DNA of 44,140 bases from an uncultured Bdellovibrionales bacterium (GCA_964415155.1 CAYPZY010000001.1:1-44140); one strand, 5' to 3'; counted from the stretch's first letter, positions 3,818-44,140 are shown. A program made the numbers and translations. The notes: generated by a model not told the origin, from the sequence alone.

Positions 3818-4096
3818 ATGCTTGAACTTATAAAAAAAGTATTCGACATAGCCCAAGTGATAATTGGTTATTATTTTGGAAAGAAAATCGGAGAGCAAGA
3901 GAATGAGTGGTTAAAACTTCAATCGGACATTAATCAAAAGGGGAAAGACATACTTTCAAAAGAATTAGAGCGCCGAGAAAGAATAAGAAAACAATATGAA
4001 ACTGATCCTGTTACTGATCCTTGGAAGTCTCCTTCTAGGGTGCCATCCAAAAATAGTTCAAACACCAATCGAAATTCCAAAGCCAAAGTGCGCTGA
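3818..4096 (+). CDS. i-spanin (Rz-like) candidate
   Basis: It has a weakly hydrophobic N-terminus (VFDIAQVIIGYYFG) followed by a charged coiled-coil-like region. Its 3' end is overlapped in the +1 frame by a lipoprotein ORF, the classic Rz/Rz1 arrangement. Confidence 0.35.
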   Translation: MLELIKKVFDIAQVIIGYYFGKKIGEQENEWLKLQSDINQKGKDILSKELERRERIRKQYETDPVTDPWKSPSRVPSKNSSNTNRNSKAKVR

Positions 4097-4223
4097 ACTG
4101 GTCGCTGAATTTTATAAAGACTTTGACGACATCGGTTATTTTCCACAACCCAATTACCGGGAATTTAAATCTATCATGACCTGCCTCAGACTGTACGGTT
4201 ATGAATATCAGGAGGAAAAATGA
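3996..4223 (+). CDS. o-spanin (Rz1-like) outer-membrane lipoprotein candidate
   Basis: The signal MKLILLLILGSLLLGC has an LLGC lipobox. The mature N-terminus is Pro-rich (HPKIVQTPIEIPKPKC) and carries an extra Cys. The ORF overlaps the 3818 ORF in the +1 frame. Confidence 0.5.
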   Translation: MKLILLLILGSLLLGCHPKIVQTPIEIPKPKCAELVAEFYKDFDDIGYFPQPNYREFKSIMTCLRLYGYEYQEEK

Positions 4224-4767: not shown

Positions 4768-5196
4768 ATGACTGAAGAACAATTTAAAAGCCTAATAAAC
4801 GCCCAAACTAAAAAAGAATTTGATGTCCTTTTCAAAAAGGGAGTCGAATACACTCAAGCCTCCAAAGATAAGTTGATTAATTTTAAAGAGACGGCGGCTT
4901 ATATTCAAATCACCACTCTTCAGGCATGGGCAGTTCATTTCTACAAACATATCACAGCTATCTTCAGTTACATCAAAAGAGAGAAAACTCTCTCGGAGTC
5001 CATTCAAGATCGAATCCTAGATGCCCGCAACTATCTCCTCTTACTGCTCGCCATTATTCAAGAAAAAGAAAAAACTCCGAAAGATGCACGACAATTAAGT
5101 TTAAATTTCCGAAAAAGGAAAGCCGCTTCTAGGAGGAAGAAGCGGCTTATCGATGAGCCGAAGGGCGGGAAGGTCCCTTCTACGAAGGAGAATTAA
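4768..5196 (+). CDS. all-alpha DUF1599/MazG-like protein (tentative) with basic tail
   Basis: The pattern NF...QAWAVHFYKHI...ESIQDRILDARNYLLLLLAII resembles DUF1599 / NTP-pyrophosphohydrolase-like helices. Its stop overlaps the stop of the convergent holin gene. Confidence 0.35.
   Translation: MTEEQFKSLINAQTKKEFDVLFKKGVEYTQASKDKLINFKETAAYIQITTLQAWAVHFYKHITAIFSYIKREKTLSESIQDRILDARNYLLLLLAIIQEKEKTPKDARQLSLNFRKRKAASRRKKRLIDEPKGGKVPSTKEN
5110..5148 (-). terminator. Rho-independent terminator candidate for the minus-strand late operon
   Basis: A perfect 11-bp stem (5120-5130 / 5138-5148) encloses a 7-nt loop. On the minus strand it is followed by UCCUUUUUC. It lies 45-80 nt past the holin stop, inside the 3' end of the convergent gene. 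Confidence 0.5.
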
Positions 5197-5387
5197 TCTT
5201 TAACAACAGTCAGCGCTGGTTCATTCTTTTTACTCAATCCCCTAGAAATCGCATAAGCTAAAGACGAAATCGAACTTGCGATTACCGCGTACTTTGGATC
5301 TAAATGATCCATCAAAACCGCCGCCGTTGATCCGATAATTACAAAAAAACTTACCCAAAACTCACTTGTTTTCCATCCTGACTTCAT
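5193..5387 (-). CDS. holin candidate (64 aa, two hydrophobic segments, charged C-terminus)
   Basis: Two TM-like stretches (FWVSFFVIIGSTAAVLM and YAVIASSISSLAYAI). GGGGGAG SD upstream. It lies immediately downstream of the endolysin gene. Confidence 0.55.
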   Translation of the reverse strand: MKSGWKTSEFWVSFFVIIGSTAAVLMDHLDPKYAVIASSISSLAYAISRGLSKKNEPALTVVKD

Positions 5388-5399
5388 ACTCGCTCCCCC

Positions 5400-5783
5400 T
5401 TATTTTAAAATCGGAACCTGAAGATGAAGATGAAAATTACCACCCTCCCCATGCGCCAAAGCCGTGGGTCTTCCATCCGTCCTCGGATACCGACGATTAA
5501 TAGTCTCAACCATTTCTTTAATTTTACTTTTATCAGGGAAATCATTCAAGCGAATATCCACAGCGCGACCGTCTTCGTGAGGGGAGACAGTGGCGGTTGT
5601 CTTGCCTTCGGCCTTGAGACTTGCCTGCTGAGCCGCTGTCCTGCGCACGCAAGTGACAACCATTGGGTGCTTATGCTCCGCGAACAAAGTAGCTACGAAG
5701 CAAGTAATTGTTTGGATGCGAGTATTGGCGTGTAAGAATTCTTCTAAGAGAGGGTCTAACTTAAAATTTATTTCAATTTTCAT
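5400..5783 (-). CDS. endolysin, peptidase M15 (VanY / LAS-type zinc peptidase)
   Basis: SPHEDGRAVD matches the SxHxxGxAxD signature, and the C-terminal HLH supplies the HxH zinc ligand. ATGA coupling to the upstream gene. Confidence 0.7.
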   Translation of the reverse strand: MKIEINFKLDPLLEEFLHANTRIQTITCFVATLFAEHKHPMVVTCVRRTAAQQASLKAEGKTTATVSPHEDGRAVDIRLNDFPDKSKIKEMVETINRRYPRTDGRPTALAHGEGGNFHLHLQVPILK

Positions 5784-11142: not shown

Positions 11143-12786
11143 TTAAAATAATGAAGTGCTTAAACTCGCTCCATAATTTCCTAAATTATAAGGGGAAAGA
11201 GACGGTGCTGGGGTTGGGGAAGCTAGCAAAGAGGCGGAACTTCTTCCACCGCTCGGTGCTGGAGCGCCACCTCCGCCTCCGCCACCACCCCCGGCACCCA
11301 TAACCACACCTGCCAAACCTGCACCTGCACCAAGCAATTGCGTGAAAGCATCTAAGAAACCACCCTTGGTAGTTTGAGTAGTTTTCGCCTCTGCTAATTG
11401 TTTATTCTGTTCTACTCCTAACTGACTCGCTACAGGGTTCAATAAAGCGTTCGATAAATTTAAAGCATTGATATTTTGATTCGCGCCAAATGACAACGCA
11501 CCGCTTCCCGCATTCATTAAAGCCGGCAAATTCCCGTAAGCTAAATTCTTAATCTCATCCATTTTCGCTTTTTCAAGACCTAACAAAGCATCCGCCCTAC
11601 CGCCTTCAATACGCTCTCTCTTCTCGCCCTGAGAAGCCGCAAGTTTCGCACGAGCCTCGCCAACACCTTGAAGCTTATTGCCTTGAGACTCTGCCAAACT
11701 CACGCGCGCAAGGGAAATTTTTTGCTTACCTTCTTCGACGGCTGCGGTGATATTTAAAGCGCCTTCTGATTCCCGAACAGCCGCTTCATTTTCAAGCATC
11801 CTTAAAGCGTCTGTCTTGATTTTTAAAGCTGAGACCTTTTCAGCTTGGGAGCCTGGGGGGAGACCTAACAAAGCCGCTTGCTGTGCAGCTCTTTGGTCTG
11901 CCTGTTCTGAAAGTAAATTAAATTGAAATTTTGCACGTTCATAAGAGGACTCATTTACGCGCCTAAGAGCTGTAGTTAAAACCTCACCGCTTTGATTGTA
12001 ATTCACTTCTGCGGCCCTTAAAGCATCTTCAACATCAAACCCAGTTTGGTTAATTTGATCGACTAAATCATTTAGAGATTGAGTAACTGATTCTCCCGTT
12101 TGAGAACTTATCTGCAAAAGATTATCCACCGACGCATTCACCACATTACGAATCGGCGCTATGTAGGTGTCTACCTGAGCTGCCTGTTCTGGAGTAAAAC
12201 TCATATCTCCAGAAGTAAATTTTTTCACATTCGTTAAAAATTGATGTTCAATATCCGCGGTAGACTCTACTTTAAAAAGTTCTTCTTGCTTAATTTGCTG
12301 ACGCATCCCAGCGACTTGGTCAGAGCCTTCTCCGTAACGATCAATAGCTGCCAACACACGAGGGTCTTCTTTTTTCTTCAACTGATAATCGGTGTAGGTT
12401 ACTTGCTCCATTTCAGCGAGAGCTTGCTGTTTACGACTTAACTGTTCTTCCAATGACCTTAGATTACCACCGCCACCACCCCCGGCACCAAAACCTCCGC
12501 TCACACCACCCCTACCTGTAAAACCAGCGCCACCACCAGCAGCCGGTCCAGCCGCTTGCTGCGCACGAGCATCCGCGACCTTACCTTGCAATTCCGAAAT
12601 TTGATCTTTTAATAAATTCGCTTCTCCTTCATTTCGGTATTTAGTCTTTTGAGTGGGATTAACATCGTACCCACCAATCTCTTGAAGGTTGGAAAGCATG
12701 ATCTGAGTGAACAAAGCGTCGTAGCTTTCTCCACGGGCAGAAAGAGGGGCTAATTCAGTTTTAGTCTCAGTTTTTTTATCACACAT
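11143..12786 (-). CDS. coiled-coil virion internal-protein candidate (547 aa) with two poly-Gly tracts
   Basis: Long Ala/Gln/Glu-rich helical sequence with GFGAGGGGGGN and GAGGGGGGGGGAPAPSGG tracts. Its start overlaps the GNAT stop by 8 nt. Confidence 0.5.
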   Translation of the reverse strand: MCDKKTETKTELAPLSARGESYDALFTQIMLSNLQEIGGYDVNPTQKTKYRNEGEANLLKDQISELQGKVADARAQQAAGPAAGGGAGFTGRGGVSGGFGAGGGGGGNLRSLEEQLSRKQQALAEMEQVTYTDYQLKKKEDPRVLAAIDRYGEGSDQVAGMRQQIKQEELFKVESTADIEHQFLTNVKKFTSGDMSFTPEQAAQVDTYIAPIRNVVNASVDNLLQISSQTGESVTQSLNDLVDQINQTGFDVEDALRAAEVNYNQSGEVLTTALRRVNESSYERAKFQFNLLSEQADQRAAQQAALLGLPPGSQAEKVSALKIKTDALRMLENEAAVRESEGALNITAAVEEGKQKISLARVSLAESQGNKLQGVGEARAKLAASQGEKRERIEGGRADALLGLEKAKMDEIKNLAYGNLPALMNAGSGALSFGANQNINALNLSNALLNPVASQLGVEQNKQLAEAKTTQTTKGGFLDAFTQLLGAGAGLAGVVMGAGGGGGGGGGAPAPSGGRSSASLLASPTPAPSLSPYNLGNYGASLSTSLF

Positions 12787-13252
12787 TTTCTAAAACCTTA
12801 AAATATTCAGAAGAGAATTTAAGATACCCTTTACTCAACGCAAAATCATTTCCCCTCTGAGAATTGTTAGAAACAATTTCTGTTACCCCAAATATAGCAA
12901 ATTTCGCACCCTTTTGCTTCCCCCAATTTTCAAATTCCGCTAACATCTCAGCCCCTATCCCAAGGCCTTGATACTCAGGGAGAACATAAGTATAAAGCTC
13001 TGCGGCCACTAAATCTTTAGTAAAAGGATATTGTGTTACCTGTCCTAAAAATGTCCCAACCGCCTTCCCATCCATAAATGCACAAACAAAAAATTTATTA
13101 GGATTAACTGAATGATCTTTTAAAGTATTTGTAAATTCTTCAGGGCTTGCAGTCGAGGAAATTAAATGAAAGCCAGTGGCCTTTATACAGTGCAAAGCAA
13201 GGTCAATAATAGTTTGAGACAATTCAGTAACCTCTATTATCTCTAGCGCCAT
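12779..13252 (-). CDS. GNAT-family N-acetyltransferase
   Basis: The acetyl-CoA motif-A-like sequence YQGLGIGAEMLAEFENWGKQKG follows beta-strand-rich VCAFMDGKAVGTF. The size (157 aa) is typical of the family. Confidence 0.65.
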   Translation of the reverse strand: MALEIIEVTELSQTIIDLALHCIKATGFHLISSTASPEEFTNTLKDHSVNPNKFFVCAFMDGKAVGTFLGQVTQYPFTKDLVAAELYTYVLPEYQGLGIGAEMLAEFENWGKQKGAKFAIFGVTEIVSNNSQRGNDFALSKGYLKFSSEYFKVLENV

Positions 13253-13518
13253 CTTGTGCTTTTCCTTCCTCGATTAAATTTTACACTAGTCACTCTTAAA
13301 TTACTCGAAGAATTTCCAGCCTTCACTCCATGAACATGATCCACATCTTTCCCAATTAAATATTTTTTTCCATATTTTTGGATCATTTTATTACGAGCCT
13401 TCATACGAGGATAACGATTATCTTTTTGCGCCTCTGTCCGCTGAGAATATTCGGTCACATAATTTCTAGGGTATGTATACGTTTTGCCGTTTTTCTTTAC
13501 ATGTTTGGTTCCAATCAT
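13243..13518 (-). CDS. basic 91-aa protein with HNH-like motif (tentative)
   Basis: GKDVDHVHGVKAGNSSSNLRVTSVKFNRG has DH ... N ... N spacing reminiscent of HNH/His-Me finger nucleases, but no Cys zinc site. It overlaps the GNAT start by 10 nt. Confidence 0.35.
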   Translation of the reverse strand: MIGTKHVKKNGKTYTYPRNYVTEYSQRTEAQKDNRYPRMKARNKMIQKYGKKYLIGKDVDHVHGVKAGNSSSNLRVTSVKFNRGRKSTRWR

Positions 13519-13622
13519 ATAAATTAACGCCTTTTCTATGCACGTCGTCTACCGGCAGCGGCCATACTTGCCATTTTTTTAGCACCATTGATTTTGTTTT
13601 CAATTTTTGCCATATTCTTATT

Positions 13623-13961
13623 ATGAAAAGTAGAACTTATTATTTCAATATCTATAAAAAATTTAAAAAAATAAGTTGTGAAAAATGTTTTAATAATAAA
13701 AATTTAATTGTCCATCATCTAGATGACGATATGACAAATAACGTTCCACAAAATTTACAAACTCTTTGCCGACGATGTCATCAAATTGAACATAAATGTT
13801 GGTTAAATTTTCCAAAAAATCTTGTTCCATGGAATAAATTAAAACCTCAAAAATGCAAATGGTGCACAAAGGAATTTATTCGTCATGGTGGAAATATAAA
13901 CCAAAAATTTTGCAGTAGACATTGTTTTATGAAAAATAGAAATTCTATTTTCTACCTTTAG
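13623..13961 (+). CDS. free-standing HNH homing-endonuclease-like protein (112 aa from ATG 13623)
   Basis: CEKCFNNKNLIVHHLDDDMTNNVPQNLQTLCRRCHQIEH is a canonical CxxC-HH-N-N-CxxCH HNH motif. It is the only plus-strand gene inside the 25-kb minus-strand block and is visibly AT-rich. Confidence 0.75.
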   Translation: MKSRTYYFNIYKKFKKISCEKCFNNKNLIVHHLDDDMTNNVPQNLQTLCRRCHQIEHKCWLNFPKNLVPWNKLKPQKCKWCTKEFIRHGGNINQKFCSRHCFMKNRNSIFYL

Positions 13962-18859: not shown

Positions 18860-19132
18860 TTAATTTGCCCTAGATATTTTTTTATCTATTTCTTTTAACT
18901 GATCTTTAACCTCTGTTAAAATTTCCCGAATAAATTTTATTTCTTCTTTGCTCGCATACTGTTCACGAACTTCAATTCTGAAATTTTCGATTGTCTTTTT
19001 ATTGTCGTCTTTAATCGCACCCAGTGCATTAAAATAAGAAGAAAGTCCGCCAATCAAAGAAATAAAAATTGACAAAAGAATAGTAATCCAAAACTTTTTA
19101 TCTTCATTTCTCATTATCCGATCACCATCCAA
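18860..19132 (-). CDS. small membrane-anchored coiled-coil protein (90 aa)
   Basis: TM-like segment FWITILLSIFISLIGGLSSYF followed by a charged helix. The gene is AT-rich relative to its neighbours. Confidence 0.5.
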   Translation of the reverse strand: MDGDRIMRNEDKKFWITILLSIFISLIGGLSSYFNALGAIKDDNKKTIENFRIEVREQYASKEEIKFIREILTEVKDQLKEIDKKISRAN

Positions 19133-19596
19133 TCGAATGTAGAGGTGTCTAAAACGTTTATAGTTCCATCCGCGATGTTTGCCCTCACAACGAACGAAGT
19201 TCCAACGCTACGATCTGCGGAAGGAGCCGATAAACTTACTGTTAAATTTCCAGCCCCAGGACTTGCATCTTTCAAGGTCACAACGATTCTGCTATTTGCC
19301 GTAATTGCTGCGGTGATCGTTACTGTTCCAGCATTTAAAGTATCCGATCCTGACAAAATCCCAAGATTGGTTCTTGAAGTACCAGCGCTTGCTACATCTG
19401 AAAGATTGGAAGATCTTTGACAGCTTGAACCCAACACTGAAGCCGCAGCGCCAGCAGTATCAAAAGCTCCAGCCGCTTCGACGGCTGCCGTGCCTAATCC
19501 TAAACTTGTTCTCATGGCAGAGGCCGCAGAGGCATCCAAAGGATTAATATCTGCCACTCGATCCAAAGTATTATTGCCCATGTCTAAAGTAGCCAT
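19114..19596 (-). CDS. fibre-like structural protein (160 aa)
   Basis: Ala/Gly/Ser/Thr-rich, with the repeated motifs RTSLGLGTAA and RTNLGILSGS that are common at phage fibre N-termini. Confidence 0.45.
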   Translation of the reverse strand: MATLDMGNNTLDRVADINPLDASAASAMRTSLGLGTAAVEAAGAFDTAGAAASVLGSSCQRSSNLSDVASAGTSRTNLGILSGSDTLNAGTVTITAAITANSRIVVTLKDASPGAGNLTVSLSAPSADRSVGTSFVVRANIADGTINVLDTSTFDWMVIG

Positions 19597-22481: not shown

Positions 22482-23399
22482 TTAAGCTCCAGGATTTCCA
22501 GCAGCTCCGCGCCACTGACCATATCCTTGAGCAAAACGACAAGATGCAATTAACTCCCATGCAAAAGCTTTTTTGTCGTAATCGGAACTTGTATTGAGAC
22601 CTTCACGAGTTAAAAACATCAAGCCATGATCTTCTTTAGGAGCTAAAATAAACCAGGCTGTAGAAGATGAAAGATATTGCCAACATCCGCCAGGCACCAA
22701 GGTTGCCGTCTGATAAATGGTATTGATTGCGTTGTTCGCATTCTCAGGCTCAAAATTCGATTTTAACAATCGAGCAGCAACATCTTGAAGATCTTGAGGA
22801 ACCACCAAATACTGCATTTGATAGCGAAGTAATTGCCCATCTTCGTTAACGGTCTCTTGTAAAATATTTCGAAGTTCGATGAATGAAGTGCGAGATAAAG
22901 CAGAAGCTGCCGCCGGACGATTGATGCCGAATCCAGGTGCATTTTCTAAAGGATGTGTGGTCGAAAATAAAGACACCCCATCGTAGCCGGCAACCGTAAA
23001 TCCATCGTCCAAAACTTCAGCGGCGGACAATTCTTTAATTTCAAACATACCTTTCGAAAAAGAATCCGTGGCACGTTTGATAAAATTGAATTTGCCATCA
23101 TCCACTGTCTCTTTTGAAATTCTATAACCAGTCGCGTATGTCGGCGCGGTGTAGGTCTTTTTAAAACCCGTCTTGATAGTCTGAAAAGTAACCGGAGCAT
23201 TTTCAGGCTTAACAGAAGGATTTCTCAAACCTGAGAGTGTGGTCGTTTGATAAATATCCGTTGACATCATTTCCTCATTGAAGAGTAAAGGAATCATCGA
23301 GGGATAAGAATCTGCTTTTGCTGAAACGACCGCTTCAAGTTCTGGCAATTTTGATTCGCCAAAAAAATCTGCAAAATTACTTCTTAAATTGGTTGGCAT
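22482..23399 (-). CDS. major capsid protein candidate (305 aa, HK97-fold size class)
   Basis: Strong AAGGAGG SD. The position (portal - scaffold-like - x - x - this gene) and the size fit a major capsid protein. The call was not verified by search. Confidence 0.55.
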   Translation of the reverse strand: MPTNLRSNFADFFGESKLPELEAVVSAKADSYPSMIPLLFNEEMMSTDIYQTTTLSGLRNPSVKPENAPVTFQTIKTGFKKTYTAPTYATGYRISKETVDDGKFNFIKRATDSFSKGMFEIKELSAAEVLDDGFTVAGYDGVSLFSTTHPLENAPGFGINRPAAASALSRTSFIELRNILQETVNEDGQLLRYQMQYLVVPQDLQDVAARLLKSNFEPENANNAINTIYQTATLVPGGCWQYLSSSTAWFILAPKEDHGLMFLTREGLNTSSDYDKKAFAWELIASCRFAQGYGQWRGAAGNPGA

Positions 23400-30223: not shown

Positions 30224-30251
30224 AAGAACTTTGACTTAACTTGAATAGATT

Positions 30252-30279
30252 TAATTAAATATAATTATGTTTAATTTTA
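30252..30279 (-). promoter_or_regulatory. Second copy of the conserved AT-rich 28-nt motif, upstream of the terminase operon
   Basis: TAATTAAATATAATTATGTTTAATTTTA matches 24522-24549 at 26/28 positions. Partial copies lie at 30631-30646 and 30671-30683. Confidence 0.4.
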
Positions 30280-30848
30280 TTTAAAGTAAATACAATTTAT
30301 ACTTAATTATGTAACATTGTGCATAAAAAGTCTATTATATTTTTAAATATGTTTATTTGTTTGTGTTTAAATAAATGAGATGAATGACGGGGTTTGGGTG
30401 GGGGAGAATATGTTGTGAGGTTGGGTTGTGGTACGCTGTTACACGACTACGCTGTATTGCAGCGATGCCGGGCTTTGAGAGATTTATTTAAATAGAAGTG
30501 TTAATGTGAAGTTTGCGGCCTTAATGGGTAGGCATACCTCCCGGCGCGTCGACTCGGCCCAACCCCCTCCGCGTCAACCGAAACGAAGGTCGCTGCCATG
30601 CCGCGGTGCGCGACGCTGCAATGTTATGTATAATTATGCTTAATTAATATTAATTTAGTATTGTTATTATTAATTAAATATAACTACACCTATGTTTTCT
30701 TGCGGTCCGATATGCACTTTGTGAGTGGTCGCGGTCCAGCGTTGCAGGTTACAAGGTTCGCATAACATGTAGTATGTAACATTCTTGCGTAAGTGCTTGA
30801 TTTTGCGTTGATCGAAAAAAGTTATCCACAAGTGAAATAAATATTTGA

Positions 30849-31365
30849 AAAAGTGTGGTAGTGGCACGTGGTTTGCATTACCACACTTTTCGGTCATTTT
30901 GGTTACACTAAATTCACTTTATTTTTCGGAAGTTTAACTATAAGTTTTTTCAATTCTGTGGTCCTTATATATATAGGAAAGTTTTATAATATAATTATAT
31001 TATATTATGTACAGAATTTTATGACCATATATATATGGTCATTTTCAGCAAATTATAAAACTTTCATAGATTAGAAATCGAAGGACCACACTTCTGAAAA
31101 AACTTATAGTTAACTATATGATAAATAAGGGGAAAAAAGTGTAACTTTTTTTCCGTGCCAAACTTATAAGTGCTTGAAATATAAAGAGAAGCTAAAAATA
31201 GCATTTTGGTTACACCGCTGCGCCGCACTACCACACTTTGAAAAAACTTATAGTTAAACACATGACAAATAAAGAGAATTTAGTGTAACTTTTTTAAGGC
31301 CAATATTTACAAATACTTGAAATCTAAGTGTTTTATTTTTAATAAAAAAACCGCAACGCCGCGAT
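30849..31365. repeat. Iteron-like repeat scaffold (candidate origin / divergent control region)
   Basis: ACCACACTT occurs four times, plus one variant. The 19-22-nt core TGAAAAAACTTATAGTTAA occurs three times, once inverted. Two tandem units of about 144 nt lie at 31084-31228 and 31229-31365. A 12-bp inverted repeat lies at 30849-30860 / 30879-30890. Confidence 0.85.
31021..31042. repeat. Perfect 22-bp palindrome ATGACCATATATATATGGTCAT at the symmetry centre
   Basis: The sequence is self-complementary. It is flanked by a 14-bp inverted repeat (30977-30990 / 31052-31065) and a second (TA)n tract at 30966-30975. Confidence 0.9.
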
Positions 31366-31461
31366 GCCGCGTCAAGCAAAATCGTATTCTGTACAAAATA
31401 TATTTTTTTATGAGGTGTACACACCCCAATTTATAGCCATAAATTATGTACAGAATATTTT

Positions 31462-31499
31462 ATTTTGTACATAATTTTTTATTTTGTACATAATTTTTT
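31462..31499. repeat. Two perfect tandem 19-nt units ATTTTGTACATAATTTTTT
   Basis: Direct reading shows 31462-31480 equals 31481-31499. The units are part of a TGTACA hexamer cluster. Confidence 0.9.
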
Positions 31500-31512
31500 A
31501 TTAGGGTAAAAT
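31484..31512 (+). promoter_or_regulatory. sigma70-like promoter candidate (TTGTAC-17-TAAAAT)
   Basis: The hexamers lie at 31484-31489 and 31507-31512. A sister candidate, TTGTAC-18-CATAAT, starts at 31465. The AT-rich context makes false positives likely. Confidence 0.3.
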
Positions 31513-31651
31513 TATACCCACCTATCTATCAAAATCCCCTTACCATTATTATATCCACCATTAAAAAAACTTTTCCAACCTTTATCACCCCCGACACCCC
31601 CCAAACAGATTTAATAAATCTAAATTATTTTATTTAAATATATTTTTTTAG

Positions 31652-31783: not shown

Positions 31784-32044
31784 ATGACGCAAATCAATTC
31801 AAATTACGGTCGCATTAAGGCATGGCCGGGCGAAGCCCCTACCCAAACATCCATCAATCGATCAGAGGTGAGTCGAGCATTGGCGAAGGCAATTGCTTAT
31901 AAGAACTGCGGAAAAGATTTAGAGGCGATGGAATGGGCGAGGAAGTTAGTGATTCAATTGCAGTGTGCGGACATCCTCGGTGAAGACCAAGATTTCGTAG
32001 ACAAATCCTCAATGGCCGATCGAATGGGGGTGTCTCATGTCTAA
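31784..32044 (+). CDS. first early protein (86 aa), hypothetical
   Basis: AAGGAGA SD at 31770-31776 precedes ATG 31784. The TTG at 31652 in the ORF track is the -35 hexamer. Confidence 0.6.
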   Translation: MTQINSNYGRIKAWPGEAPTQTSINRSEVSRALAKAIAYKNCGKDLEAMEWARKLVIQLQCADILGEDQDFVDKSSMADRMGVSHV

Positions 32045-32921
32045 AGAAATCTACGAGCAAATTACTAATACCTTTCTTGCTGCCTTAGAAGAGGAGCGAA
32101 TTCCTTGGCGCAAACCGTGGAGCGCGGGGCCGCGAAACTTCAGTACAGGCTCCGAGTACCACGGAATAAACTTTTGGTTGTTATCGATGATAGCCGAGAA
32201 GAATCAATGGCCCAATAGGTGGGCCACGTTTAACCAGGTGAAGGGTTTAGATGGCTCTATTGTGGCGGGCTCGAAGGGAACTCGGATTTACTTCTGGAAG
32301 CCTTTGAAGATTAAGGGGAAGGGGACCAAAACCGAAGGTGGGGAGAGCACCCAAGAGAAGTATCGAACGATACCCTTGCTTAAGACCTTCACGGTGTTCA
32401 ACCTTGCGCAATGCAGCGGACTCCCCCTAAAAGTGACCGAAAGCACCCAAAAGGTTGAACCAAGTTTAGAAGCGGATCAAATTACCACCGCCTATTGCGA
32501 ACGAGAAGGCCTCAAGGTTGAGACTTCTCATCGTGCTGCCTATTCACCCTCAAAGGACCTCATTTATATGCCTGACGTGGGAGCATTTACGGAGCGCGCG
32601 GAGTATTACTCCACTTTCTTTCATGAGCTTGTGCATTCGACCGGGCACGGAGCTCGTCTTTCACGGGAGGGGATAGTGGAGACGCATTACTTTGGGGATG
32701 AGACGTACTCGAAGGAGGAATTGATTGCGGAAATGGGTGCCTCGTTTCTTTGCAGCAAAGCGGCGGTGTCGTCTCCCCAGTCGTTCGCAAATTCGAAGGC
32801 GTACATTCAGGGCTGGATCAGCGCGTTAAAGAATGACCCGAAGTTGCTGATGCAAGCGGCGAGCAAAGCGCAGCGCGCGGCGGACTATGTGCTGAATGGG
32901 AAAGGGGAGGTGCAATCATGA
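32037..32921 (+). CDS. ardC: ArdC-like antirestriction protein (N-terminal ssDNA-binding domain plus zincin HExxH domain)
   Basis: The N-terminal IPWRKPW ... YHGINFWLL and C-terminal FFHELVHSTGHGARLSRE closely match the ArdC family pattern. Confidence 0.75.
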   Translation: MSKEIYEQITNTFLAALEEERIPWRKPWSAGPRNFSTGSEYHGINFWLLSMIAEKNQWPNRWATFNQVKGLDGSIVAGSKGTRIYFWKPLKIKGKGTKTEGGESTQEKYRTIPLLKTFTVFNLAQCSGLPLKVTESTQKVEPSLEADQITTAYCEREGLKVETSHRAAYSPSKDLIYMPDVGAFTERAEYYSTFFHELVHSTGHGARLSREGIVETHYFGDETYSKEELIAEMGASFLCSKAAVSSPQSFANSKAYIQGWISALKNDPKLLMQAASKAQRAADYVLNGKGEVQS

Positions 32922-34359: not shown

Positions 34360-34460
34360 AATACTATTTGATATTATTTTAATTTTGATTTAAAATGAAA
34401 TAAATCTGCAAAATTGTAAAATGGAACACTTAACAATAACAACCTAACAAAGGAGAAAAT

Positions 34461-34691
34461 ATGAAAGTGCAATCAGGTTCCCACCTCGGTGTATACACCG
34501 AGTCCCCGTACGTCTATCGGAAACCCACGGTGGTATTCGAGGAGGCGTTGGCGAACGGGGGATTAAGCGGTAACGTGAACGATGATAACTACGCTGGGAA
34601 TTATATGTACATGCACTCGACCGACACCGCTGATAGTTTCAAGCACATTGTGACGCGGGAATACTTAACCCTGCCACGCGGGGGTGTGTGA
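34461..34691 (+). CDS. hypothetical protein (76 aa)
   Basis: AAAGGAGAAAAT SD. Its stop overlaps the start of the metzincin gene. Confidence 0.55.
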   Translation: MKVQSGSHLGVYTESPYVYRKPTVVFEEALANGGLSGNVNDDNYAGNYMYMHSTDTADSFKHIVTREYLTLPRGGV

Positions 34692-35188
34692 TGAAGTTGT
34701 CTGCAAAAATATTTTTGTTTATTATTTTATTTTTTGTTGGATGCGGAACAAAACATCAAGAGGCAAACGCGTTTAATCCTCTTTTTCAATTTATTCCGAT
34801 TGGAATTCACGCGCAACACCTAACAGGTGCGCAAGAAATTGAACTTCAAAAGGCAATTAATTTTTGGAACGATGAACTTAGTTATGAATTATTGGCAATA
34901 GATTCAGACATTCAAAATGCAACCATTGATATTGAATTTACCCCTGATCTTGAAGGGGAGTTTGAAGACTTAGCCGGCTTTGCAATTCCAAACATTAATA
35001 CTTGTGAGGTGAAAATAAAATTAAATGTGTGGTTCTATATTGCCCACGAAATTGGGCACTGCTTAGGGTTTGGGCATTCACCCATTGAAAATTCAATTAT
35101 GAATATTCATGTGCCAATTCACCCAATTTTGAATGAAGATTACAAGCGACAAATTGTCGAATATTTAAATGCGCTAATAGGAGAATAA
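34691..35188 (+). CDS. lipoprotein metzincin zinc metalloprotease (matrixin-like HExxHxxGxxHS)
   Basis: The signal peptide MKLSAKIFLFIILFFVGC ends in a lipobox-like VGC. HEIGHCLGFGHS lies at 35045-35080 and is followed by an SIM Met-turn-like motif. Confidence 0.7.
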   Translation: MKLSAKIFLFIILFFVGCGTKHQEANAFNPLFQFIPIGIHAQHLTGAQEIELQKAINFWNDELSYELLAIDSDIQNATIDIEFTPDLEGEFEDLAGFAIPNINTCEVKIKLNVWFYIAHEIGHCLGFGHSPIENSIMNIHVPIHPILNEDYKRQIVEYLNALIGE

Positions 35189-35191
35189 AAA

Positions 35192-35527
35192 ATGTTCAAA
35201 CTTCATCAAAATACAATTCGAGAAATATCTCGGCTGTTCCCCTACATTGATAAATCTCAATTGTTTTTGATCGATGTTGAGGACGTGCTTGAGGAAGTGG
35301 AGGACCCTCGCGAAAAAGTATACAAAATAAATCTGCAAAATGGCGAAATGGAAACATGCAAATTTAAGAAAGGCCAAGATCTTTTCGACGAGCTGCAACG
35401 CGCGAAGTGCAGCATCGCGGTGCGCAAAGTGGAAAATGACGAAGCTCAAATCTTAAATGAACTGTACTTGCCAATTAAACCCTACGTTTGGGTGGCCTTG
35501 GCGAGTACGAGAGAATCACTACACTAA
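35192..35527 (+). CDS. hypothetical protein (111 aa)
   Basis: AGGAGA SD. It begins 3 nt after the protease stop. Confidence 0.55.
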   Translation: MFKLHQNTIREISRLFPYIDKSQLFLIDVEDVLEEVEDPREKVYKINLQNGEMETCKFKKGQDLFDELQRAKCSIAVRKVENDEAQILNELYLPIKPYVWVALASTRESLH

Positions 35528-36411: not shown

Positions 36412-36669
36412 ATGGATGATTTATACAATTATAAAACTTCTTATTCGGATGCAGAAATAATGGCTTTGGCGGATAACGCGCTTGTGCGAACGATGATTAA
36501 GTTTGCCAGTTCTTATGGGTACAACAAATCAAATTTCACGTCTAGCGCTGCAATTGCGGCTAAAGCAATGTATCTTCGGTTCGAAAAGGAATGCTTGGCG
36601 CGGTTAAAGCAACGCCACAACCCGGAATGTTTAGTCGGTGCTAAACTTCCACTCCATGAATCTATATGA
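36412..36669 (+). CDS. hypothetical protein (85 aa)
   Basis: ORF coupled by ATGA to the downstream helicase gene. Confidence 0.5.
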   Translation: MDDLYNYKTSYSDAEIMALADNALVRTMIKFASSYGYNKSNFTSSAAIAAKAMYLRFEKECLARLKQRHNPECLVGAKLPLHESI

Positions 36670-38036
36670 TTGATTTAAAAGAACATCAAAAAGAAGGCAT
36701 GGAATTCCTGAAGAGCCGCACCGCCGGTGGCCTCTTCTACGAAATGGGTTTGGGGAAAACTCTAACCACGCTAGCAACGCTGGAAGAAAAGAATGTATGG
36801 CCGGTGCTCGTCGTATGCCCTCTCTCTGTGGTGGGTGTATGGGCGGCGGAGGTTAAAAAGTTTGGGTTCAAGAGGAAGGTCCTCTCCCTGGTCGGGAGTC
36901 GGTTCGAACGATTGGATTTATTGGAAGAGCCCGCGGATATTTACGTCATCAATTATGATGGCATGCGAATACTTGCGGACGAACTTCTGAAAAGAAAATG
37001 GGGTGCAATCGTTTTGGACGAATCCCACCGGATCAAGAATATCACCTCCACCCAAACCAAGGTTGCATTGAAGTTAAGTAAATGTGCCGAGCACCGCTAC
37101 ATTCTCACAGGTACTCCAATCACCAAAACCCCAGAGGACGTATGGTCTCAAATTTATTTCCTGGACCCCACTCACTTCACAAACTTCTATGCGTTTAGGG
37201 CCAGGCATGTGGAATATAAGGTAAGGCAAGTGCGAACGCCGGGGGGCATGAGAGAAGTTCGAATCCCCTATCGGTTTAAAAACCTGGAAGAACTTGAGGA
37301 GAAGATGGGGAGAATTTGTCTACGAAAAACGAAGGCTGAATGCTTGGACCTTCCGGAAAAAATCTACAAGAAAATTTATTGCGAACTCGAAGGGGACCAA
37401 AAGACACACTACTACGAACTAAAACATAGCTTAGTCGCAATGCTGGAGAGCGGCAACTTTGAAGTGCGGGCTGGGGGGGCGCTCGTTCAAAAGCTAAGAC
37501 AGGTCTGCCAAGGTTTTTTATACGTCAATGAAGATACTCACTTAACCAAGGAAAACGTAAAATTAAAATATTTAAAAGACCTGCTTGAGGACATTCAAGG
37601 TGAAAAGAAAATTCTGTACACATATTTTAAAGCCGAAACGGAATTGCTCTTAAAAGAATTATCGAAGACTCAAAAGGTTTTTTATTATGATGGCTCCCCT
37701 GATGAGCGCGCGCTCACGATTGCAGGGTTTGAAGAGCATGAAGGCGACGCCATTCTATTAATGCAAATCGATCAGGCAATTGGAATGAACTTAGCATTTG
37801 TGAGCCACGTAATTTATTATTCAAATTCATGGAATTACGCGACGCGGTTACAAAGCGAAGATCGAGCTCACAGAATCGGACAAAAAAATTCTGTGGTGTA
37901 TTACGATTTTGTTTGCCCGCGAACTATTGATGAGCATGTCTTAGATCTGCTTCTAATCAAAAAAGATTTAGCGGACCAAGTAACGGGAGACGTTAAAAAA
38001 CTTGCGCAAAATTATTTAAATAAATACAATTCTTAA
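36666..38036 (+). CDS. SNF2-family helicase/ATPase
   Basis: Motif I GLGKT, motif II DESH, motif III LTGTPI and motif VI QSEDRAHRIGQ are all present in the canonical order. Confidence 0.85.
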   Translation: MIDLKEHQKEGMEFLKSRTAGGLFYEMGLGKTLTTLATLEEKNVWPVLVVCPLSVVGVWAAEVKKFGFKRKVLSLVGSRFERLDLLEEPADIYVINYDGMRILADELLKRKWGAIVLDESHRIKNITSTQTKVALKLSKCAEHRYILTGTPITKTPEDVWSQIYFLDPTHFTNFYAFRARHVEYKVRQVRTPGGMREVRIPYRFKNLEELEEKMGRICLRKTKAECLDLPEKIYKKIYCELEGDQKTHYYELKHSLVAMLESGNFEVRAGGALVQKLRQVCQGFLYVNEDTHLTKENVKLKYLKDLLEDIQGEKKILYTYFKAETELLLKELSKTQKVFYYDGSPDERALTIAGFEEHEGDAILLMQIDQAIGMNLAFVSHVIYYSNSWNYATRLQSEDRAHRIGQKNSVVYYDFVCPRTIDEHVLDLLLIKKDLADQVTGDVKKLAQNYLNKYNS

Positions 38037-44013: not shown

Positions 44014-44140
44014 CTTACAATCTCAACTCTTACAATTGATCGAGTCTCAATTACCAGAGCAAACCGCTGGGGTGCTGCGATCCTATTTAAAGGACACCCA
44101 AAATATAAAACAAGAATTGGAAGCTTCAAGAGAAGCTTTA
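44006..44140 (+). CDS. 5' portion of junction-spanning coiled-coil protein (continues at base 56)
   Basis: ATG 44006 overlaps the upstream stop. The frame stays open to the contig end, and its last 18 codons lie within the 55-bp terminal repeat (bases 2-55). Confidence 0.6.
   Translation, partial: MGDLQSQLLQLIESQLPEQTAGVLRSYLKDTQNIKQELEASREAL
44086..44140. repeat. Terminal direct repeat identical to 1-55
   Basis: Exact 55-bp identity with the contig start. Confidence 0.95.

Follow-up and report, generated by a model that had tools for sequence, protein, structure and literature searches.

A phage-encoded mini-matrixin, predicted to be lipid-anchored, as a possible remodeller of the host envelope

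A complete phage genome carries, in its non-structural arm, a small gene for a putative protease of the metzincin/matrixin type. This molecular identity is well supported by sequence profiles and by a predicted structure, and the protein, here called mini-matrixin, would best be classified as a separate and minimal matrixin variant with a membrane anchor, carried by phages. Taking the lines of evidence together, we lean, slightly beyond an even balance, towards an overall explanation in which this phage-borne product is a Sec/SPII-exported, lipid-anchored and pro-domain-less enzyme that would remodel the envelope of the host.

The window (the whole stretch of DNA analysed, 44,140 nucleotides) is of phage origin, as the initial annotation had proposed, and the contig represents a complete phage genome of 44,085 bp. 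Completeness follows from a 55-bp exact terminal overlap in the window; a contig from another run bridges the junction, and four sequencing runs (SRR14932510 and SRR14610236, 241 and 247) hold 100% identical phage sequence. Neighbouring run numbers (SRR14610252-255) come from a study of a Pacific oxygen-minimum zone, a project that may also include the three SRR146102xx runs of the phage. The phage genes include those for a large terminase, a portal, a major head protein, tail proteins, an SNF2 helicase, a primase-like protein and an ArdC-type anti-restriction protein. Structural genes occupy the minus strand from about 5.2 to 30.2 kb, and the non-structural genes form a plus-strand arm that begins at 31.65 kb and continues past the junction as far as 5.2 kb. 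Three kb into this plus-strand arm lies the mini-matrixin gene, with ArdC (32037-32921) before it and the helicase (36666-38036) after it. Placement in an 'early arm', which had been part of the original claim, is reasonable on positional grounds, given the plus-strand non-structural block with its ArdC, SNF2 helicase and primase genes. An AGGAG-type Shine-Dalgarno sequence precedes about half of the phage genes. Terminase and helicase have distant relatives only, which are taxonomically scattered, and a megablast search of the region against 50,697 phage records returned nothing, revealing no close cultured relatives. No Rfam family was detected across the whole window, and the phage genome holds no tRNA genes.

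The coding sequence of mini-matrixin (34691-35188, plus strand) runs from an ATG at 34691 to a TAA ending at 35188, and its 165-residue product, a predicted lipoprotein, in translation of the ORF starts MKLSAKIFLFIILFFVGC. The proposed translational coupling to an upstream 76-aa ORF (34461-34691, plus strand) is borne out by a TGA at 34689-34691 that overlaps the ATG by 1 nt (TGATG). On the other side, a 111-aa ORF (35192-35527, plus strand) starts 4 nt past the mini-matrixin stop, and its AGGAG sits within the 3' end of the mini-matrixin gene. The 1-nt overlap and the 4-nt spacing thus make the three ORFs at 34461-35527 a single tightly packed unit. The 76-aa ORF, whose product has no signal peptide, gave no Pfam, PHROG or PADLOC match and is absent as a conserved neighbour from other loci of the family, and the 111-aa ORF gave weak sub-threshold matches only, to DUF7141 in Pfam and to DrmC in PADLOC. 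In the 100-nt AT-rich gap 5' of the unit lies a sigma-70-like promoter candidate, TTGATA-17-TAAAAT (34368-34396, plus strand), a consensus match at 10 of 12 positions in a region where the total count of promoter-like sites does not exceed that of shuffled sequences. The gene is indeed more AT-rich than its neighbours, with a GC content of 0.34 against 0.53 upstream and 0.42 downstream. The genome is a GC mosaic that ranges from 0.25 to 0.58 (mean 0.418), with values of 0.35 or less in 16 of about 75 ORFs. The AT-richness of the mini-matrixin gene is ordinary for such a mosaic genome and does not make it a genome-wide outlier.

The N-terminus of mini-matrixin carries Lys2 and Lys6, a nine-residue hydrophobic core (IFLFIILFF) and then the sequence F-V-G-C18, which a PROSITE-type lipobox expression delimits as an SPII-type signal peptide (34691-34744, plus strand). 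The codon of Cys18 occupies 34742-34744, and Gly follows at position +2. The rule used to call lipoproteins, of the PROSITE PS51257 type, asks for a basic n-region, a hydrophobic h-region and a lipobox of the form [LVI..][ASTVI..][GAS]-C within the first 15-35 residues. Under it, the signal peptide ending in Cys that had been read from the sequence was recovered, and Cys18 is nearly invariant in the alignment of 24 homologues described below (A1). Consequently, the assignment of mini-matrixin as a predicted lipoprotein with an N-terminal signal is strongly supported at the level of sequence. Between Cys18 and the first β-strand of the predicted structure lies a short N-terminal segment or tether (residues 19-35; 34745-34795, plus strand); model confidence (pLDDT) is 68-74 for residues 1-30 and at least 95 from residue 31, with the first strand at residues 37-41. 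A lipobox occurs in 32 of the 54 non-identical relatives that carry the active-site motif, and a strongly hydrophobic N-terminal segment occurs in most others; many of the relatives with the hydrophobic segment rather than the lipobox reside on viral contigs of 130-390 kb. Since most relatives have one or the other, a predicted membrane tether is a trait of the family. Note that a looser lipobox scan of the phage ORFs returned two more small lipoprotein candidates besides mini-matrixin.

The complete metzincin zinc site reported previously was recovered at exactly 35045-35080 (plus strand), where residues 119-130 form the zinc-binding consensus HEIGHCLGFGHS, with His119, Glu120, His123, Cys124, Gly126, His129 and Ser130, in agreement with the HExxHxxGxxH/D pattern. 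Downstream, the S-I-M motif that had been described as resembling a Met-turn (residues 135-137; 35093-35101, plus strand) places an invariant Met137 eight residues past His129, the spacing seen in aligned MMP chains and in 48 of the 54 relatives. Eight residues are invariant in alignment A1 (W59, H119, E120, G122, H123, G126, H129 and M137), and C18, N60, C105 and C124 are kept in at least 90% of its 24 sequences. The emphasis that had been placed on a Ser after the third His, as in matrixins, holds for this protein, in which Ser130 is present, but not for the family, in which the residue varies: it is S in 26 of the 54 relatives, D in 17, V in 4, T in 3, N in 2, and A and R in one each. The motif is not a chance occurrence, judging from a match to the Pfam Matrixin family (PF00413) above its cut-off and from the invariance of active-site residues in the 24 homologues. 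Overall, sequence conservation and the model strongly support an intact predicted catalytic apparatus, in which an MMP-type fold carries the active site and the Met-turn of metzincins.

The Pfam match reached 30.8 bits, above the gathering cut-off of 24, and spans residues 112-141 only, so the assignment of a full domain depends on the family profile and on the predicted structure. A profile built from alignment A1 and compared with all PDB sequences gave MMP-20 as its best match (E = 5.5e-12) in an alignment that takes in most of the domain (profile positions 33-139), and the matches listed were MMPs and the bacterial MMP-like karilysin only. Prediction with AlphaFold2 (AF2) from the single sequence reached a pLDDT of 35.6; the model built with alignment A1 (pLDDT 91.4, pTM 0.83) was used instead. 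It comprises five strands and three helices in the order typical of MMPs, namely strands 37-41, helix 46-63, strands 68-70, 79-83, 96-101 and 104-109, and helices 114-125 and 149-164. The predicted catalytic domain (residues 36-165; 34796-35185, plus strand) thereby displays the MMP fold with a shortened S-loop. When the model was compared with the PDB using Foldseek, the top 50 matches were all catalytic domains of MMPs or karilysin (E of about 1e-7), with a probability of 1.00 to MMPs and TM scores of about 0.6 when normalised on the full precursor. The initial annotation had made its proposal depend on placement in the metzincin fold, and on this point Pfam, the PDB profile search and Foldseek agree. 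Because these constitute three semi-independent lines of evidence, the metzincin/matrixin fold is well supported.

Mini-matrixin therefore shares with the matrixins (MEROPS M10A, which includes vertebrate MMPs and karilysin of Tannerella forsythia) the HExxHxxGxxHS motif, the Met-turn spacing of 8, the five-stranded sheet and the three helices. It falls within the clan and within the Pfam family, and two features of classical matrixins are missing. It differs from matrixins in that its catalytic domain has only about 130 residues, is predicted to be lipid-anchored and is phage-encoded, and in that it has no pro-domain or cysteine switch and a shortened S-loop, in place of which a conserved Cys pair is present. 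The stretch from Cys18 to the first strand spans about 17 residues, and the protein contains neither a pro-domain nor the cysteine-switch motif PRCGxPD. Aligned to the profile, MMP-20 shows some 16-20 additional residues after strand III and before strand IV; this segment is the S-loop, the site of structural zinc and calcium in MMPs. Outside the active-site motif, alignment A1 contains no conserved His or Asp. On these alignments, the S-loop with its structural Zn/Ca sites is deleted in the mini-matrixin family. A protease of similar dimensions exists in snapalysin (M7), a secreted Streptomyces enzyme that is active with a catalytic domain of about 130 residues and an HExxHxxGxxH motif and is not a lipoprotein. 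The best profile and structure matches of mini-matrixin are nevertheless to M10A and not to M7.

The Cys pair provides a plausible counterpart to these losses. Cys105 (codon 35003-35005, plus strand), nearly invariant and proposed as the disulfide partner of Cys124, sits on strand β-V, just before the active-site helix, and Cys124 comes right after the second zinc-binding His (HExxHC). In alignment A1, which was assembled independently of the motif pattern, both cysteines are present in 22 sequences, neither is present in 2, and none has only one of them. In the wider set, a Cys occurs 8-30 residues upstream of the motif in 47 of 51 HExxHC proteins. This co-variation suggests that C105 and C124 probably form a disulfide that stabilises the shrunken domain. 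Such a bond, if correct, would imply an oxidising compartment, for example the periplasm or the cell exterior, which fits with export. Structural metal sites of MMPs are missing, and one might take the protein for a pseudo-enzyme or binding module, or for a protein that stays in the cytoplasm and whose hydrophobic start does not act as a signal peptide, but this is highly improbable given that all catalytic and Met-turn residues are invariant across the 24 homologues, that the lipobox Cys and the co-varying Cys pair are conserved, and that snapalysin, a metzincin of like size, is active.

Relatives are rare: when 1.84 billion cluster representatives were searched exhaustively with HMMER (E ≤ 1e-3), 27 related proteins were recovered, the closest with 42% identity and nearly all with lengths of 136-225 aa. 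In comparison, a word-indexed protein search with mini-matrixin alone matched only itself, and a PHROG scan gave no more than a weak 'metallo-protease' match (phrog_87, E = 0.014). The closest homologue (P0002) belongs to a phage-like contig with Terminase_2 and VRR_NUC, and another relative (P0020) is encoded just downstream of a Cro-like HTH gene. A scan of IMG/VR for the pattern HE[LI]GHC[LIM]G yielded 31 confirmed viral loci, and metagenome contigs from JGI and ENA added 28 further relatives. Searches with tblastn against the 50,697 phage records, using mini-matrixin, the family consensus and two further queries (L036 and P0017), returned nothing. Representative genomes of 185,579 species contributed at least four relatives; the four come from the first 600 pattern matches listed and are all in MAGs, which belong to Actinomycetes, Deltaproteobacteria, Bacteriovoracaceae and Oligoflexales. 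The more distant proteins of the family occur in plainly cellular contexts. Some hosts of the family are probably Gram-negative, and jumbo-phage contigs encode some of the relatives.

The neighbourhoods of these relatives are variable. Several viral loci have PolA, NT5C, gyrase B or DnaB-type genes a few kb away, and an all-vs-all BLAST of neighbours placed PolA at about 5 kb in several of them and revealed no conserved adjacent gene. Pfam profiling of 115 immediate neighbours likewise uncovered no recurrent family and no candidate inhibitor or partner. Next to L067, a distant relative, lies a flagellin gene, an isolated case.

Viral proteins with a related fold have been seen before. Structure searches against BFVD gave matches with E between 1e-6 and 1e-4 to MMPs of baculoviruses, ascoviruses and entomopoxviruses and to phage entries such as A0A6J5P205, labelled 'Peptidase M10' and derived from an uncultured Caudovirales phage, and a 'Matrixin family metalloprotease' of Maribacter phage Colly_1. 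The likeness of these viral M10 entries to mini-matrixin is detectable by structure only, and our literature search found no paper characterising the phage Peptidase M10/matrixin entries. The statement that a protease of this kind is not a standard phage function should accordingly be softened, since relatives occur on 31 IMG/VR contigs and phage proteins already labelled as Peptidase M10 or matrixin exist in BFVD. The mini-matrixin family is real and recurrent in viruses, and genes with the M10 fold were already annotated in phages.

The evidence can be assembled into a possible course of events. The mini-matrixin gene would be transcribed with early or middle genes as part of the tight three-gene unit. 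The pre-protein would be exported and lipidated at Cys18 and, in a Gram-negative host, would come to sit on the periplasmic side of one of the membranes. Gly at +2 would direct it to the outer membrane if the E. coli +2 rule is applied, although the sorting rules of the host itself may differ. Within the folded domain, the Cys105-Cys124 disulfide would stand in for the structural Zn/Ca sites of classical MMPs. Because there is neither a cysteine-switch pro-domain nor an adjacent inhibitor gene, the enzyme may be active upon folding. Held by a tether of about 10-17 residues, it would then cut one or more protein substrates near the anchoring membrane.

The purpose of such envelope proteolysis is a more tentative matter. 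By analogy with known phage lipoproteins, a receptor or another envelope protein may be removed or clipped, which would exclude superinfecting phages and spare the loss of progeny on debris; we regard this as possible, at a weight well short of even. The logic would be that of Llp of phage T5 and Cor of phages phi80 and N15, carried out enzymatically. These proteins resemble mini-matrixin in being small lipoproteins encoded by non-structural phage genes, with a predicted envelope location near receptors. Llp and Cor lack a protease fold and act by binding to FhuA, which they block, and the PHROG scan revealed no sequence similarity of mini-matrixin to known superinfection-exclusion proteins, Llp and Cor included. 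The timing context is provided by relatives encoded near PolA, NT5C, gyrase B or DnaB-type genes or after the Cro-like HTH gene. We know of no characterised phage precedent for superinfection exclusion by a protease that destroys a receptor.

The main rival, though in our judgement an unlikely one, is that the tethered protease helps lysis and egress by loosening envelope links, such as Lpp/OmpA-type tethers between outer membrane and peptidoglycan or proteins of wall remodelling, so that endolysin and spanins would act faster. It owes this position to Mtz of Listeria, a secreted, phage-derived metzincin that together with a TIMP-like lipoprotein, Tim, sensitises cells to phage lysins; Mtz raises sensitivity to holin-lysin and boosts virion release, and as the only characterised phage-linked metzincin it promotes lysis rather than exclusion (PMC8235301). 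By description, the Mtz-Tim system and mini-matrixin are alike in an exported metzincin (by prediction for mini-matrixin), in early regulatory regions of phages or prophages (compare the relative encoded after the Cro-like HTH gene) and in action, here only proposed, at the envelope. The differences are also considerable: Mtz has an SPI signal and needs the adjacent lipoprotein Tim, whereas mini-matrixin is itself a predicted lipoprotein and has no conserved partner, and the host of the phage, in contrast to Listeria, is probably Gram-negative. The Mtz-Tim type of arrangement was not found here. No lipoprotein partner gene adjoins, given that the 76-aa product lacks a signal peptide and that neither this ORF nor the downstream 111-aa ORF is among the lipobox candidates of the ORF scans of the genome. 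The predicted membrane site in a probable diderm host would be where tethers of the Lpp/OmpA type are situated, and this is consistent with a helper of lysis.

Gene position and neighbourhood argue against that role. The two arms of the genome converge on a candidate lysis region at about 3.8-5.8 kb. It includes a candidate endolysin of 127 aa (5400-5783, minus strand; PHROG 'endolysin' match, E = 9e-6), a transmembrane protein of 64 aa (5193-5387, minus strand) and two overlapping spanin-like ORFs on the plus strand, one of 92 aa (3818-4096), which is hydrophobic at the N-terminus and then charged over a long stretch, and one of 75 aa that is Pro-rich and carries a lipobox (3996-4223), which together look like an Rz/Rz1 pair. 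By its architecture, the overlapped pair points to a Gram-negative (diderm) host. The mini-matrixin gene lies about 13 kb from this cluster of spanin, endolysin and transmembrane genes, in the replication arm. Across the family no neighbour is recurrent, and the 25 neighbour families listed do not include any lysis family. Separately, we considered mini-matrixin as the lysis enzyme of the phage and rejected this possibility, as the candidate endolysin/transmembrane pair and the spanin-like pair sit elsewhere.

A protease made early in infection could instead destroy a periplasmic or envelope component of an anti-phage system, or a stress sensor. This is a quite doubtful reading, although the arm that holds mini-matrixin also holds the ArdC-type anti-restriction gene (32037-32921), a Lar-like restriction-alleviation match is present in the phage genome (E = 4e-4), and the family is distributed in a patchy, mosaic way and lacks fixed neighbours, as accessory conflict genes typically do. 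Against it, PADLOC defence-system models gave no match, no known envelope-located target can be named, and most characterised anti-defence proteins act in the cytoplasm.

Equally doubtful is the view that mini-matrixin is an accessory protease of the moron type, released or exposed at the surface, that would benefit the host by acting on external proteins in nutrient acquisition, on proteins of biofilm or capsule matrices, or on competitors. The GC content falls from 0.53 to 0.34 precisely where the upstream ORF gives way to the gene, which suggests a horizontally acquired cassette, distant cellular relatives exist in MAGs of Bacteriovoracaceae, Oligoflexales, Deltaproteobacteria and Actinomycetes, and bacterial MMP-like enzymes such as karilysin act extracellularly. 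The arrangement of the gene and its product speaks for a different role. No integrase or repressor domain was detected in the phage genome, so that a setting of lysogenic conversion is unsupported; the short tether and the anchor conserved across the family favour action at the membrane; and the gene is embedded in a tight operon without a promoter and terminator of its own.

Returning to the membrane-tethered, envelope-remodelling enzyme that we favour, its significance is both structural and biological. A disulfide-stapled MMP core with a single zinc, if true, would be a new minimal matrixin architecture, and a matrixin scaffold of about 130 residues is relevant to the evolution of proteases, including the debate on horizontal transfer of MMPs, and to engineering. 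Practical value is limited until host and substrate are identified. Superinfection, receptor availability and lysis are under the control of phage accessory genes whose products act on the envelope of the host. To our knowledge, almost all known phage accessory proteins of this kind work by binding or by modifying glycans and not by proteolysis. As a conjecture that we hold loosely, and consider rather improbable in its full form, membrane-tethered mini-matrixins may represent a widespread enzymatic editing of the envelope by phages, with early destruction of receptors from the periplasmic side as a means of superinfection exclusion. A family of tethered proteases conserved across unrelated phages would extend the repertoire of envelope-acting phage functions with an enzymatic mechanism.

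The window is a complete phage genome of 44,085 bp, circular or terminally redundant, because its ends (1-55 and 44086-44140) form an exact 55-bp terminal overlap and a contig from a different run, L001, reads through the resulting junction. Sequence 100% identical to it was present in 4 sequencing runs.

The two arms of this genome, structural genes on the minus strand and non-structural genes on the plus strand, are separated by an AT-rich divergent control region of 1.4 kb (30224-31650). It contains five or more copies of a palindrome of about 20 nt centred on TGTACA, three of which stand in tandem at 31440-31497 with a spacing of 19 nt, together with inverted repeats of 52-74 nt at 30902-30975, 31072-31145 and 31238-31289. 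The region may represent an operator array or an origin. A second kind of repeat, the exact 17-mer AAATAAATCTGCAAAAT, occurs twice on the plus strand and a third time, with one mismatch, at 23361-23377. One exact copy (34398-34414) adjoins the promoter-like site in the gap 5' of the three-gene unit that includes the metzincin, the predicted lipoprotein mini-matrixin of 165 aa, and the other (35325-35341) falls within the 111-aa ORF located 3' of the metzincin gene. When up to three mismatches were allowed, an equal number of matches was reached in only 1 of 100 shuffles.

The arm that carries the metzincin also encodes, at 32037-32921 (+), an ArdC-type anti-restriction protein containing an MPTase-PolyVal metalloprotease domain. 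A scan of 51 window ORFs returned a weak Lar restriction-alleviation match (E 4e-4) in one further ORF, and the two may constitute a small counter-defence set in this arm. The same strand holds a 36-aa ORF (2236-2346, +) with a good lipoprotein signal (MRILFLIILLLTSSC), which lies within an otherwise unassigned gap and is the third lipoprotein candidate of the phage.

Two overlapping plus-strand genes resemble an Rz/Rz1 spanin pair. The product of the first (3818-4096) has 92 aa and is hydrophobic at the N-terminus, after which comes a long charged stretch. The second (3996-4223) is read in a different frame; its 75-aa product carries a perfect lipobox (LLGC), and the mature part is rich in Pro. 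The likeness of this pair (3818-4223) to Rz/Rz1 suggests a Gram-negative host. A candidate lysis pair closes the late arm on the minus strand, composed of a putative endolysin of 127 aa (5400-5783; PHROG 'endolysin' match, E 9e-6, and a sub-threshold DUF5715 match), for which a sequence search against the PDB gave no match, and, coming after it, a 64-aa protein with a single hydrophobic helix (5193-5387), a possible holin. Within the structural arm, a K1 capsule-lyase C-terminal domain (E 6e-9) is present in a 160-aa tail-region protein (19114-19596, -), which also gives a weak PHROG match to tail fibres; this hints at a capsulated host. An HNH-endonuclease-like ORF (13473-13961, +; GC 0.28; sub-threshold Pfam matches), encoded on the strand opposite to the surrounding arm, probably represents an inserted homing or mobile element, and a GNAT acetyltransferase gene (12779-13252, -) adjoins it.

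Beyond this genome, homologues of the metzincin that are TM-anchored and of the HELGHCLGLAHD/DHD type were found on the viral IMG/VR contigs L017, L019, L027-L031, L036 and L043, most of which are very large and measure 130-390 kb (L031 measures 57 kb). Some of these homologues adjoin genes for PolA-UDG fusions, gyrase B or NT5C. Within the family, the TM-anchored proteins look like a distinct jumbo-phage branch.
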